From Escherichia coli (GTDB taxonomy: Bacteria > Pseudomonadota > Gammaproteobacteria > Enterobacterales > Enterobacteriaceae), in NCBI RefSeq assembly GCF_051903065.1, contig NZ_CP178441.1: a stretch of DNA of 42,047 nucleotides. The stretch is one strand, 5' to 3'. The notes below the pieces were generated by a model, which saw only the letters and a list, made by a program, of their open reading frames with translations, was not told the origin of the DNA and did no database searches. Position numbers and translations under genes: made by a program. Of the stretch, positions 3,111 to 8,600 are shown piece after piece. Every line of letters starts with the position of its first letter. Position 1 is the first letter of the stretch.

Positions 3111-3875
3111 ATGGCTATGAAAGTATTGGTTACAGCAAATCAAAAAGGTGGTGTTGGCAAGACTTCCACCCTGGTTCATCTGGCATTTGATTTTTCAGAA
3201 CGAGGCAAGCGGGTTGCTGTAATCGATATGGATACCCAGGGCAACGCCTCTTTTACCCTGAAACAGTTCTCGTCCGGCATTAAAGCGAATGAAATGTGGG
3301 GCGAGATCGAGCCAACTCGCTTTACCCAAATGCCTGAGAGCGGAATTTCTCTCATTGAGTCAGATATTCAACTAGCAAACGTAGAAAAATTAAATCTGCC
3401 GGAAATGGTGAAGCAGTTCCGCCATAACCTGCAGCAGCTGGCGGACAGTGGCTTTGACGTCTGCCTGATTGATACTGCGCCTACGGTTAACAATGCGCTT
3501 ATAGTTGCGCTGGCGAGCGCTGATTTTGTGGTATGCCCTATTGAGCTTGAGGTGTACTCAATTCAGGGTATTAAAAAAATGCTGACCACTTTCACCCAGG
3601 TGAAACGCAAAATGAACAGCAAGCTGGAATTTATTGGTATGGTTCCAAGTAAGGTAGATGGCCGCAATCCTCGCCATGTAAACCACCTGCAGGAGCTGCA
3701 GACGGCCTACCCTACGTTAATGGTTCCTGTGTCTGTCGGGTTGCGAAGCAGCATTGCTGATGCACTGGCTTCACATGTCCCTGTCTGGAAAATCAAGAAG
3801 ACAGCAGCACGTAAAGCCAGCCAGGAAATGAGAGCACTGGCCTGTCATGTTTTTACTAAGATGGAGATTGCATAA
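3111..3875 (+). CDS. incC: IncC / ParA-family partition ATPase
   Basis: Deviant Walker A KGGVGKTS and a ParA-like fold signature. Immediately precedes the ParB homolog, with stop/start overlap. Confidence 0.85.
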   Translation: MAMKVLVTANQKGGVGKTSTLVHLAFDFSERGKRVAVIDMDTQGNASFTLKQFSSGIKANEMWGEIEPTRFTQMPESGISLIESDIQLANVEKLNLPEMVKQFRHNLQQLADSGFDVCLIDTAPTVNNALIVALASADFVVCPIELEVYSIQGIKKMLTTFTQVKRKMNSKLEFIGMVPSKVDGRNPRHVNHLQELQTAYPTLMVPVSVGLRSSIADALASHVPVWKIKKTAARKASQEMRALACHVFTKMEIA

Positions 3876-4888
3876 TGACTAAAAAAAATTCTTCCGGCCT
3901 TGGCCTTGATACCGTTGGTGATCTCTCCGACTTTCTTGATGCGTCTGCAGGTGCTGAGGGTAAACCACTGATGCTGGACGTTGATGCGATTGATCCCGAT
4001 CCTGAACAACCGCGTAAGCAGGACAACCCAGGGTTCTCAGAGGAATCCATTAAGGAGCTGGCTGATACCATTAAAGCGCGTGGTGTGAAAATGCCTGTCT
4101 CCGTTCGCGAGAATCCGGAGCAAGCGGGGCGCTATATTATTAACCATGGAGAACGTCGCTGGCGAGCCAGTAAAGTGGCCGGGAAGAAACAAATTCCCGC
4201 TTTTATCGATAATGACTATAGCGACGATGATCAGGTCATTGAGAACATCCAGCGTAATGACCTGACGGCGCGTGAAATTGCCGTACACATTGGCCGCAAA
4301 CTGGCTGAGGGGGTATCAAAATCTCAGATTGCTAAACGGCTTGGCAAGTCGCCAGCGTTCGTAACCCAACACGCAGCGTTGCTGGACCTGCCGGATTGTA
4401 TAGCAGATGCTTTTAATAAAGGTTCAATCCGTGATGTTACCGTAGTTAATGAGCTGGTAACGGCTTACAAGCAAGACCCGGAAGAAGTTCAAAAACTGCT
4501 TGAAGAGAACGAGGGTGAAGACATTACCCGTAGTGCGGTGAAAGTTTTCCGTGAGTTCCTGGACGAAAAAGAATCCAGCAAGCGTGATCCAGACACCATT
4601 GACGCCTTCAATGGCCGTACCGATTCGGAAGCTGCCGAAGATGATACGGACGGCCACGATGATAACGATGTGACCGATAAGGTCCGTAAGACGCCAGAAA
4701 AGGAAACCGATCCTGATAAATTCAAAAAGGCTATTGTTATCGTTGAGTACCTGGGGGAGCAGGGCCGCCTTATCCTGACCAAGCGCCCAAGTGAAGAAGG
4801 GCTTGCCTGGATTAAGTTTGATTCAACTGGTGTAGAAGAAGAGCTAAATCTCGAAAACGTGAAAATAATTTGCCTTATTGAAGGATAA
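3875..4888 (+). CDS. korB: KorB / ParB-family DNA-binding partition and global regulator protein
   Basis: ParB box HGERRWRAS and HTH segment SKSQIAKRLGKSPAFVTQH. Eleven cognate 13-bp OB palindromes are present on the replicon. Confidence 0.85.
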   Translation: MTKKNSSGLGLDTVGDLSDFLDASAGAEGKPLMLDVDAIDPDPEQPRKQDNPGFSEESIKELADTIKARGVKMPVSVRENPEQAGRYIINHGERRWRASKVAGKKQIPAFIDNDYSDDDQVIENIQRNDLTAREIAVHIGRKLAEGVSKSQIAKRLGKSPAFVTQHAALLDLPDCIADAFNKGSIRDVTVVNELVTAYKQDPEEVQKLLEENEGEDITRSAVKVFREFLDEKESSKRDPDTIDAFNGRTDSEAAEDDTDGHDDNDVTDKVRKTPEKETDPDKFKKAIVIVEYLGEQGRLILTKRPSEEGLAWIKFDSTGVEEELNLENVKIICLIEG

Positions 4889-4909
4889 AAGGTATCAATT
4901 TCCGCTCAG

Positions 4910-4937
4910 AATCCCGCAGTCGCGGGATTTTTTTTAT
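4910..4937 (+). terminator. rho-independent terminator after korB
   Basis: Stem ATCCCGC/GCGGGAT with a 4-nt loop, followed by a run of eight T. Confidence 0.7.
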
Positions 4938-4958
4938 TAATATTATTTATTGCATAAT

Positions 4959-4971
4959 TTTAGCCGCTAAA
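4959..4971. promoter_or_regulatory. KorB-type operator TTTAGCCGCTAAA
   Basis: Perfect OB consensus. A degenerate KorA-like half site TGTAGCTAAACA lies at 4981..4992. Confidence 0.6.
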
Positions 4972-5086
4972 ATGTATAGATGTAGCTAAACAAAATTTAA
5001 CCTGAGGGCTATGTAGTTCCGTCAGGGCAGAGAATTCATGGTTCCTGGCGGCTATTTCCTAAAAACGCATCATTACCGGTGATGTT

Positions 5087-5370
5087 ACTTATGAGTAAGG
5101 TGACGCAGGGAGAGTTAAGAACCATACTCAACATGCAAAACAACATTAGGAATGAGCGGCAAAAACACCAATATCTGTATCAGAGTACTGACATCCTTAT
5201 CAACCTGGCTGGGATGAGGGATTGAGCGTGACACAATAGCTCTTAACTTATCGTAGCTGGAAGAAAGCCCTATCTTGGTCCTTTCGACAAACAGCGCCTG
5301 AAAGAAGCCCACAAACGCATTTTTAACGGCATTTATCCATAGGGCCGGAGAATACCTGGATGATGGTTAA
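5087..5370 (+). pseudogene. possible frame-disrupted gene remnant (Fic-like N-terminal helix motif) in a 0.5-kb ORF-free region
   Basis: Short frames encode ...FDKQRLKEAHKRIFNGIYP(stop) and, one frame over, AGEY.... Deleting one base near 5340 would give IYPWAGEY, which resembles the Fic N-terminal helix. No intact ORF spans 4972..5468. Confidence 0.25.
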
Positions 5371-5468
5371 AGAGTAGTTGGGTAATCAGTTGCCGATTCA
5401 ACTTAAAAATAGCAGTTAGCCCTATCTCAATACAGACGGTTGATGATAACACAAGGAGTAACACCGAC

Positions 5469-5822
5469 ATGAGCAAACAGCGTGTTCTTGTCATGAACGG
5501 CCAGCGAGTGCTGCAAAGCGAAGAAGCTGGAAAATGGAAAAATGACAATGTTGATAGAGCTGGCAGCATAAAGCCAGGCATTTACCCGCTTTATCTGTCC
5601 AAGGGGCCGGATAAAGCCAGCTCTTATAATGGGCCGATTTTACACGCAGATAAGCAATCAGTATATCAGCAGGTAGGTAAGCAGATTTTCAAGCATGATC
5701 GCCAAAATTTCGATAAACTGCCAGAAGTAGGTACGGAAAAAAGTATTTCGTATGACCAGACTTCCGGTAAAGCTCAGGTAGCAGCAGCCACAGAGAAGCA
5801 GGGCCGGAAGTTCTCCAGATAG
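5469..5822 (+). CDS. hypothetical protein (kfr/upf-position)
   Basis: GGAG RBS before the ATG. Position corresponds to the kfr/upf54 block of IncP-1. Confidence 0.5.
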   Translation: MSKQRVLVMNGQRVLQSEEAGKWKNDNVDRAGSIKPGIYPLYLSKGPDKASSYNGPILHADKQSVYQQVGKQIFKHDRQNFDKLPEVGTEKSISYDQTSGKAQVAAATEKQGRKFSR

Positions 5823-5843
5823 CGAATAGCGTAGGAGTCCCGG

Positions 5844-6524
5844 ATGAAGCCAACTACCCCATTTAAAAATCCCGGCGCGGTCCGGGATACCTCCTCCCCT
5901 CATCAGCAGCTTGATATTACACCTGATCTTCTCGCAGAGTCGGAAGCCGTAAATATCCAGGAACAGGTACAGCAACTGCATGACGAACAGCAGCAGTTGA
6001 TCAATGACCCTTCCCATTTGCAGGATTCGCAAACTGACGCCGGTAACATTGAGCAGGAATATAAGGATGCGGTAGAGGCGGCAGTAGCGGATAAAGAAAC
6101 GCAGGCAGAAAACCTTGAAAACCGGCTGGAATCGCTGATAGACAAGCAGGAGGCGGTTCTGCAGCAGATGATGAGTCGTCAGCCTGGGTTTTTGGCTCTG
6201 CCCGGCCAGAAGGCAAAATGGAAGTCACAGGTGCAACAACAACAGTCATTGCTGAGTCGCCTGCAGAACCGGCTGGAAACTGTCAAAGAGATTCATGACG
6301 GGATGGGGTTACATGGCCCGCGTATACACGAACTTGCGACGGCCAAAGTGCGGCATGATAAACCAGAGCTTGCCGAAGGATGGGATGAAATGCGGGCTGC
6401 ACAGCGAGCGCATGAGAATCTCATGCGGAAGCAGGCGAAAGAACAGAAAGAAAAGCTACAAAGAGAGCAGGCTCCATCACTAAGTAAAGGGAATGGTCTG
6501 AGCCTTACACGAACAATAACTTGA
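5844..6524 (+). CDS. Q/E-rich coiled-coil protein (Kfr-like position)
   Basis: AGGAG RBS. Highly charged, Gln/Glu-rich sequence consistent with long alpha-helical coiled coil, in the position where IncP-1 plasmids carry kfr genes. Confidence 0.5.
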   Translation: MKPTTPFKNPGAVRDTSSPHQQLDITPDLLAESEAVNIQEQVQQLHDEQQQLINDPSHLQDSQTDAGNIEQEYKDAVEAAVADKETQAENLENRLESLIDKQEAVLQQMMSRQPGFLALPGQKAKWKSQVQQQQSLLSRLQNRLETVKEIHDGMGLHGPRIHELATAKVRHDKPELAEGWDEMRAAQRAHENLMRKQAKEQKEKLQREQAPSLSKGNGLSLTRTIT

Positions 6525-6534
6525 TCCGCTACAG

Positions 6535-6560
6535 AATCCCCGTCATGCGGGGATTTTTTT
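6535..6560 (+). terminator. rho-independent terminator (AATCCCCG-TCATG-CGGGGATT plus T-run)
   Basis: 8-bp stem followed by seven T residues. Confidence 0.7.
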
Positions 6561-6652
6561 CCGCAACAATTCCTACCCCCTAAAAACAGCGAAACCCCGA
6601 TAAACGGGGTTCAGGCCGGTTGGCGATAAGGCACGCTACAACATAACAAAAT

Positions 6653-6679
6653 TTTAGCCGCTAAAACTTAGCGGCTAAT
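6653..6679. promoter_or_regulatory. tandem KorB-type operators: TTTAGCCGCTAAA (6653..6665) and degenerate CTTAGCGGCTAAT (6667..6679)
   Basis: Two adjacent copies of the OB palindrome immediately past the traM stop. Confidence 0.55.
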
Positions 6680-6681
6680 AG

Positions 6682-7122
6682 TCACTTGTAAAACGTTGCA
6701 ATGAATGCGACGGCAGCAGCCATTAAGGTGATCACCGCCGCCGCCATATTCATCATGGCAAGTTTTCTTGCCCCTTCTATGTGCGCCCGCGATTTTCTGA
6801 TCTCGTCCTGAACTTCCTTTCTGATTATGACAGCGGTTTCTGTGGCGGCAGATGTCAAAACCCGCTCCATTACTTCCGTATTCGCCTTTAGCGCGGCGTT
6901 AAGGATACGGTCAGCCTTATCCTTCGCGCTGTAATCCCATTGCATCAGGGCGCTTTGTAGCTCGGATTTAAACTCATCCAGAATTTCACCCTGTTTCTCC
7001 TGGCTTTCATCCAGCAAATAACGAAGCAGGGTAGGAACGACCATAATCGGATCGGTTTCATCCAGGGCTATACCATGCTTTTTAGCAATGAGCGCAATGA
7101 GTTCTTCCGTCTTATCATCCAT
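6682..7122 (-). CDS. traM: TraM-like transfer protein
   Basis: Last gene of the traK-traL-traM leading-region operon by synteny with RP4. Start overlaps the traL stop. Confidence 0.5.
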   Translation of the reverse strand: MDDKTEELIALIAKKHGIALDETDPIMVVPTLLRYLLDESQEKQGEILDEFKSELQSALMQWDYSAKDKADRILNAALKANTEVMERVLTSAATETAVIIRKEVQDEIRKSRAHIEGARKLAMMNMAAAVITLMAAAVAFIATFYK

Positions 7123-8519: not shown

Positions 8520-8600
8520 TTGTGTAGACTTTCCTTGGCGTAAACACCGGCGAAAGCCGGGCAGGACATGTAAAGTAGGCCCACCGTAAACGGTGCTTCT
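8520..8600 (-). other. oriT, with nic region on the minus strand (CTTTACATGTCCTG|CCCGGCT; nick predicted between 8562 and 8561) and adjacent hairpin
   Basis: Minus-strand sequence closely matches the recalled RP4 nic region CTTCACCTATCCTG|CCCGGCT, and CCAAGGAAAGTCTACA is identical. A 5-bp stem hairpin lies at 8582..8595. Confidence 0.75.

Follow-up and report, generated by a model that had tools for sequence, protein, structure and literature searches.

The half-kilobase stretch at positions 4972-5468 of the window (the whole 42,047-nucleotide piece of Escherichia coli contig NZ_CP178441.1 analysed here) lies between korB and an open reading frame (ORF) of 117 residues belonging to the KfrB family. 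With a probability of roughly 0.93, this stretch represents a defunct type II toxin-antitoxin locus, composed of the antitoxin gene vbhA and the toxin gene fic, of which kfrB is the surviving toxin domain. RefSeq holds no annotation for positions 4972-5468. The longest ORF of the + strand measures 48 residues and the longest ones of the - strand 65 and 82 residues, in line with the initial annotation, which had seen no intact ORF over about 500 bp and had suspected a decayed gene. The suspicion of decay is borne out, with a refinement: the decay affects two genes, both the toxin and the antitoxin, and evidently ends at a domain boundary, beyond which the downstream KfrB ORF survives from the same toxin gene. 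Pseudogenised toxin-antitoxin modules are well known, and the locus adds a new, so far unannotated example.

The evidence is mainly provided by related plasmids. In pMNCG082-1, the corresponding site is occupied by an annotated vbhA (65 residues) and a fic gene of 337 residues, and both ORFs are also uninterrupted in five more relatives (pMB3565_2, OW848976, pEN3600, pHS102707 and pMTY18780-4). By blastn, window positions 5404-6643 correspond to positions 4954-6193 of the pMNCG082-1 locus at 97.3% nucleotide identity, and positions 4800-5392 align, with gaps, to positions 3951-4631 at 75.8%; about 320 bp of the pMNCG082-1 locus, located between the two blocks, have no counterpart in the window. 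When the stretch itself was used as a blastn query, vbhA/fic loci were retrieved in 79 plasmids, with a best E value of 6e-75. At the protein level, tblastn with the intact VbhA found its C-terminal half (KRIITGDVTYE, followed by the stop) in the stretch (E 2e-8), and residues 4-91 of the intact Fic were found over three frames with stops (E 5e-16, the value for residues 4-70). Significant homology to vbhA and to the FIC N-terminus is hence present at the syntenic site of intact genes, as expected for descent as pseudogenes, and the Fic-like motifs of the stretch evidently represent real homology, not chance. Residues 199-337 of Fic are 97% identical to the linker and KfrB ORF of the window, so that the 'KfrB' gene of the window represents the ancestral toxin gene's C-terminal domain.

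The intact Fic matches VbhT (PDB 3ZCB) with an E value of 2.7e-32 and carries the motif HPFREGNSRTLR. For the intact VbhA, the match to the Pfam VbhA family is weak (18.9 bits, below the cut-off of 25.9 bits), as is the match to the VbhA in the PDB, and the SxxxEG motif is present as SLRLEG. Because of the VbhT match, the VbhA resemblance and this motif, the ancestor is assigned to the FicTA/VbhTA type of module. The order korA-incC-korB-vbhA-fic::kfrB-kfrC is also encountered in metagenomic plasmids with a backbone only ~74-78% identical to the window, and Fic::KfrB proteins carrying both Pfam domains extend down to 44% identity. From this conservation, it follows that the fusion and the toxin-antitoxin pair are ancestral, and that the state in the window is derived.

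In pMTY18780-4, the uninterrupted 337-residue Fic::KfrB ORF (1261-2274, - strand) is split by RefSeq/PGAP into a 'Fic/DOC pseudogene, missing C-terminus' and a 'KfrB domain-containing protein', and the same split was seen in further relatives. This way of annotating hides an apparently intact toxin on plasmids with mcr-1, KPC and other resistance genes. The stretch of the window, for its part, can be labelled as a vbhA/fic pseudogene pair.

Lesions and decay of vbhA and fic

The remnants are arranged as follows.
5011-5155, + strand: remnant of the antitoxin gene vbhA, with an ATG immediately followed by TAG (5011-5016), deletions of 34 and 14 bp, and in-register stops at 5096 and 5147.
5152-5403, + strand: N-terminal remnant of fic (VbhT-like FicT), codons 1 to ~96, with frameshifting deletions of 1, 20, 1, 10 and 7 bp and stops at 5254, 5340 and 5375.
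5403-5404, + strand: junction of a 304-bp deletion, by which Fic residues ~97-198, including the catalytic motif, are gone.

A codon-by-codon map against the intact relative contains ten deletions (2, 6, 34, 14, 1, 20, 1, 10, 7 and 304 bp, 399 bp in total) and no insertions, some of the small ones being ambiguously placed: near 5340, the data fit a change of TGG to TAG with a 1-bp insertion, which corresponds to the one-base slip noticed in the initial annotation. The intergenic distance is correspondingly 955 bp in the window, compared with 1354 bp in the relative. Together with the TAG right behind the vbhA start codon, the five in-register stops bring the number of stops to six, and neither the toxin nor the antitoxin retains an uninterrupted frame. 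The inhibitory motif of VbhA, of the form (S/T)xxxE(G/N), was lost with the 34-bp deletion near 5030, and the FIC active-site motif HxFx(D/E)GNGRxxR, which the relatives have in the version given above, falls inside the 304-bp deletion. The ATGA overlap of vbhA and fic is preserved. The Fic-like peptide HKRIFNGIYP, which the initial annotation had read as being followed by AGEY after a one-base slip, is encoded at 5310-5339 and is followed by TAG, and AGEY is found at 5344-5355 in the next frame; the tblastn matches establish the homology of this region.

In 29 PLSDB records, and likewise in 34 complete genomes of E. coli sampled from many hosts and countries, the remnant occurs at an identity of at least 99%; with this recurrence, it is no assembly artefact. 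Three small ORFs (5079-5225 on the + strand, 5115-5312 and 5333-5581 on the - strand) were rejected as genes, as they have no Pfam match. The first of them combines out-of-frame vbhA with the N-terminus of Fic in one chimeric frame.

The differences from the relative at codon positions 1/2/3 number 16/11/16 in the vbhA remnant and 9/8/14 in the fic N-terminal remnant, an even distribution over the codon. For kfrB, they number 0/1/7, for korB 0/0/7 and for kfrC 4/3/10; kfrB is evidently still under purifying selection. Changes away from the state on which the relatives are unanimous go from GC to AT in 54 cases and from AT to GC in 29, and the GC content has dropped from 47% to 43%. This substitution pattern agrees with a change in the direction from intact to broken.

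Other lineages have inactivated fic independently of the lineage of the window. In plasmids of the pMCR_1511 type, fic has lost another segment, of 402 bp and out of frame, and vbhA is still open. A 9-bp insertion in a C-run of vbhA accompanies the lineage with this deletion. In pPN143, the 402-bp deletion is combined with a further deletion of 70 bp in vbhA, and a 287-residue Fic variant has an in-frame deletion of 50 residues, which removes only the catalytic motif. Among the related PLSDB records, kfrB is kept in 108 out of 108 (at least 95% identity, full length) and the middle of fic in 31 out of 108, counts that are affected by the sampling of clonal resistance plasmids. This natural series, from the intact pair over the deleted toxin and the deleted antitoxin to full decay, would fit a toxin-first loss of the addiction module from a successful enterobacterial backbone, the KfrB domain always being kept.

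The ancestor, whose arrangement persists in relatives of the IncP/P-1 clade II, had a single operon 3' of korB, composed of vbhA, fic::kfrB and kfrC, with a KorB operator and a site resembling that of KorA in front, at the place where the classical kfrA-kfrB-kfrC operon lies. In the lineage of the window, the catalytic core of the toxin was deleted, presumably first, and the antitoxin would no longer have been needed. The antitoxin and the toxin N-terminus would then have decayed via small deletions, nonsense mutations and GC to AT drift, and kfrB would have continued to be made as a separate 117-residue protein from its own start. We infer this order of losses and, likewise, any activity of the operon promoter.

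The KfrB ORF and its probable internal start

The part of the toxin gene located beyond the deletion junction consists of two segments.
5404-5468, + strand: segment that once linked Fic to KfrB (Fic residues 199-219) and that has become the leader of kfrB; its Shine-Dalgarno sequence AAGGAG (5453-5458) precedes the ATG by 10 nt.
5469-5822, + strand: kfrB, a 117-residue ORF with a KfrB domain (OB fold), which corresponds to ancestral Fic::KfrB from residue 221 to residue 337.

The kfrB ORF scores 65.1 bits against Pfam PF18790, for a cut-off of 25 bits, and belongs to this family. The majority of the KfrB family consists of standalone proteins with ~105-125 residues, starting exactly at the start of the window ORF. 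Four intact fusions, three of which are divergent, show the arrangement AGGAGT(N9-10)ATG just upstream of Met221. The arginine codon at the FIC/KfrB boundary is the rare AGG in all four of them; the neighbouring codons vary. Probably, kfrB is translated on its own even inside the fusion gene, as a nested in-frame cistron like trfA1/trfA2. Since its own ribosome-binding site and start lie inside the fusion gene, kfrB would still be expressed after the loss of FIC.

Operators, promoter and alternative explanations

The region between korB and the vbhA remnant contains the following elements.
4908-4938, + strand: terminator-like hairpin (4908-4931) and T-run 3' of korB, of the intrinsic-terminator type.
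4950-4978, + strand: putative promoter of vbhA-fic-kfrB-kfrC, with TTGCAT (4950-4955), a 17-nt spacer containing the KorB operator, and TGTATA.
4959-4971, no strand assigned: predicted KorB operator OB, a perfect 13-bp palindrome, TTTAGCCGCTAAA (operator consensus TTTAGCSGCTAAA).
4980-4991, no strand assigned: degenerate site resembling the KorA operator OA, ATGTAGCTAAAC, with a 10/12 match to GTTTAGCTAAAC, both mismatches being in the left half.

Both operator sites had been pointed out in the initial annotation, behind the korB terminator, and both are found there. The window contains eight perfect OB copies for an expectation of 0, on a plasmid that encodes korB (KorB and KorB_C domains); the assignment of the palindrome as a KorB operator is made at the level of sequence. 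The copy at 4959-4971 is kept in every relative, with a central C/G swap, which is permitted, as the only change, whereas its flanks are ~23% diverged; this site appears to be under selection. Variants with one mismatch occur four times in the window, at 1232, 2661, 9044 and 18423. Another perfect OB is located just 3' of kfrC, with a partial repeat right behind it (6653-6690, TTTAGCCGCTAAAACTTAGCGGCTAA). Matches to OA with at most two mismatches number four in the window versus 1.9 expected, a count not beyond chance. In all relatives, including the divergent ones, the OA-like site occupies a conserved position as ATATAGCTAAAC, and its right half-site is kept. The two perfect OA sites on the plasmid are both part of classical OB-(-35)-OA promoters, at 2694 and 38851. 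As for the korB terminator, the CCCGC/GCGGG stem is kept and the loop is variable in relatives with only ~75% backbone identity.

In all intact relatives, the sequence upstream of vbhA reads TTGCAT-N-TTTAGCSGCTAAAA-TAYTATAAT-(AT)n-ATAGCTAAAC, and it is this conservation across the upstream regions that suggests the promoter at 4950-4978. The -10 region is TATTATAAT in the relatives, and TGTATAGAT in the window instead.

Some observations speak against the reading as a decayed locus. Between 13 and 29% of the remnant is substituted, versus 2-6% at the third codon positions of korB, kfrB and kfrC, and drift at the rate of the backbone does not explain this divergence. No closer allele was encountered in PLSDB or among the loci with Fic::KfrB variants of 85-92% identity. 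The conserved TATAAT of the relatives has changed to ATAGAT/TATAGA in the window (4973-4981), the adjacent OB and OA-like half-site being retained, and scans with the sigma-70 consensus yielded no promoter in either the window or the intact relative. Finally, the stretch may be a leader with a newly acquired function. The divergence is patchy, with ~23% at 4939-5238, ~5% at 5239-5338 and ~17% at 5339-5438. Its excess could mean that the pseudogene predates the backbone around it, which recombination has homogenised, or that the patch came from an unsampled lineage. The high-divergence patch as a whole spans 4939-5560. Concerning the promoter, the consensus-type sigma-70 candidate was dropped, being absent from both sequences, and a relaxed scan returned weak candidates only; in the window, the promoter of the operon may have lost part or all of its activity.

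As part of a dead toxin-antitoxin locus, the stretch would give rise to no protein today. Its present role is most likely that of a KorB-binding site plus, if the damaged promoter fires, a transcribed leader of ~480 nt for kfrB-kfrC.

Such a region could also be explained by a small regulatory RNA or by a structured 5' leader acting in its own right. Its location 3' of a regulated promoter region and 5' of kfrB suggests that the stretch is probably transcribed. However, a scan of positions 4700-5700 with Rfam 15 gave best scores of 15-20 bits for gathering thresholds of 50-72, all of them over the korB terminator and none inside 4995-5468. The minimum free energy of the RNA is -118.3 kcal/mol, compared with -117.0 kcal/mol for shuffled sequences (z -0.21), and the sequence is fully accounted for as decayed coding sequence. 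The small RNA proposed as an alternative in the initial annotation is hence very improbable.

The same annotation had considered a single-strand promoter or initiation structure, acting early in conjugation on the incoming transferred strand (T-strand) in the manner of Frpo or single-strand initiation (ssi) sequences. Between traK and traJ, the - strand contains a nic-like sequence, TGTCCTGCCC (8559-8568; wider sequence ACATGTCCTGCCCGGC at 8548-8568). Its identification and the direction of transfer are presumed from RP4: the - strand would be transferred, with the side of traK-traL-traM-kfrC-kfrB and the remnant entering first. The region lies ~3.1-3.6 kb from this site, on the leader-operon side, and the genes of the + strand would be templated by the presumed T-strand, so that an early entry of the stretch into recipients is plausible. 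The folds do not agree with such a structure: the DNA of the presumed T-strand (- strand) reaches -49.3 kcal/mol, exactly as the shuffled sequences (-49.3 kcal/mol, z -0.01), and the + strand has a z of -1.29. A repeat scan of the stretch detected only short imperfect inverted repeats, with arms of 10-15 nt and 80-90% complementarity. A stable hairpin, as in ssi sequences, is absent, and no element comparable to the long hairpins that known single-strand promoters have occurs in the stretch. This alternative is even less credible than the former.

That the gene is still functional by programmed frameshifting or readthrough, or that its frameshifts are sequencing errors, can be dismissed, as the only support consists of Fic-like peptide fragments in three frames, whereas the catalytic core (Fic residues ~97-198, with HPFREGNSRTLR) and the antitoxin motif are physically gone, no fewer than nine lesions disrupt the frame, six stops occur, and at least 25 plasmids, sequenced independently and originating from various hosts and countries, share the identical sequence.

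Related systems and gene neighbourhood

The closest known system is the VbhA/VbhT pair of the Bartonella schoenbuchensis plasmid pVbh. The intact relatives share with it a small antitoxin with an SxxxEG motif, encoded upstream of the toxin gene and overlapping it, and their module is likewise located on a conjugative plasmid beside transfer genes. The window keeps recognisable fragments of both genes, both dead. In contrast to VbhT, the Fic of the relatives has KfrB instead of BID as its C-terminal extension and GNSR instead of GNGR, and its operon lies behind operators of the IncP KorB/KorA type. VbhT and other FicT toxins inhibit growth by AMPylating GyrB and ParE and are neutralised by the antitoxin (PMC5675462); by analogy, the ancestral Fic would have been an AMPylating toxin as well. 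According to Harms et al. (2017), VbhT reaches recipients via its C-terminal BID signal, and fusions of toxins to substrates of the type IV secretion system (T4SS) are argued to have arisen repeatedly (PMC5675462).

The kfrA-kfrB-kfrC operon of IncP-1 plasmids is controlled by KorA and KorB (PMC7783346). The operon of the window resembles this classical arrangement of RK2 and R751 in its site 3' of korA-incC-korB, in the order kfrB-kfrC and in the OB and OA-like sites in front. In contrast, kfrA, which opens the classical operon and is autoregulating, is missing between korB and kfrB, its place being taken by vbhA-fic or the wreck of it, OB lies between the putative -35 and -10, and the OA-like site reaches only 10/12.

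A toxin with a C-terminal OB fold that corresponds to the KfrB domain has been described in ng_epsilon1/zeta1, a toxin-antitoxin system of gonococcal conjugative plasmids (PDB 6EPG/6EPH). With phmmer, zeta1 matches the window ORF at an E value of 5e-4 over residues 2-104, and a close relative of zeta1 scores 43 bits on Pfam KfrB, above the threshold. Zeta1 differs in being a UNAG/UNAM kinase and not a FIC AMP-transferase, and in showing no decay. Its OB domain was regarded as nearly unique (PMC5923241). The KfrB OB fold also resembles the OB fold behind FIC in the Bartonella FIC-OB-(BAS/BID) effectors BepA (2JK8) and Bep1 (7ZBR), with ~60-70 aligned residues at 8-13% identity, by homology or by convergence; no BID or BAS is present here. 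Among 150 representative KfrB homologues, ~20 carry the domain C-terminally on longer proteins, of which the N-terminal parts are Fic, Zeta_toxin, AbiEii or LPD7 (Pfam). A literature search for KfrB together with Fic returned no relevant paper, and the main text of the polyvalent-protein paper does not mention KfrB.

It is conceivable, if rather doubtful, that KfrB is a portable OB-fold module on unrelated toxins of toxin-antitoxin systems (FicT, Zeta and AbiEii), possibly kin to the OB fold of VbhT and the Bep proteins, which couples the toxin to the transfer or partition machinery. The coupling may proceed by recognition by the T4SS or its coupling protein, or by binding of the transferred strand or of the KorB/KfrC complex. 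If this were true, the clade II Fic::KfrB (the clade is defined below) would act between bacteria, as an effector that is passed on along with the plasmid, and the lineage of the window, like ~70% of the sequenced relatives, would have dropped the toxin and kept the module. The fusions of KfrB to three toxin families and the likeness to the Bep OB fold make the roles of C-terminal domains on plasmid-borne toxins testable.

Two further genes complete the surroundings of the locus.
3875-4888, + strand: korB, 337 residues, with ParB_N, KorB and KorB_C domains; upstream neighbour of the stretch.
5844-6524, + strand: kfrC-family gene closing the operon; identity to the relative 97.5%.

The window is nearly identical to conjugative MOBP/MPF_T plasmids of ~41 kb from E. 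coli, Salmonella and Shigella, and pYDC107_41 matches the region of the window at 100%. The nearest sequenced relatives are pMNCG082-1, pHS102707, pMCR_1511 and pEN3600, with 96-99% nucleotide identity in the backbone genes. These relatives belong to the IncP/P-1 'clade II', with a narrower host range and kfrA mostly absent (Hayakawa et al. 2022, PMC9499019). The KorB protein (WP_000162907.1) is identical in pYDC107_41, pMCR_1511 and pHS102707. Locally, the order is a korA-like gene, incC/parA, korB, the ORF-free stretch, the 117-residue KfrB ORF and kfrC, followed by traM-traL-traK on the opposite strand and by traJ-traI.

The zeta-toxin gene of the window itself has no KfrB domain and no similarity to kfrB. 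It belongs to a putative second toxin-antitoxin pair at 1721-2562, in which an 83-residue ORF (1721-1972) overlaps a 196-residue 'zeta toxin family' ORF (1972-2562). The Pfam match of the latter is confined to the C-terminal half of the Zeta_toxin model.

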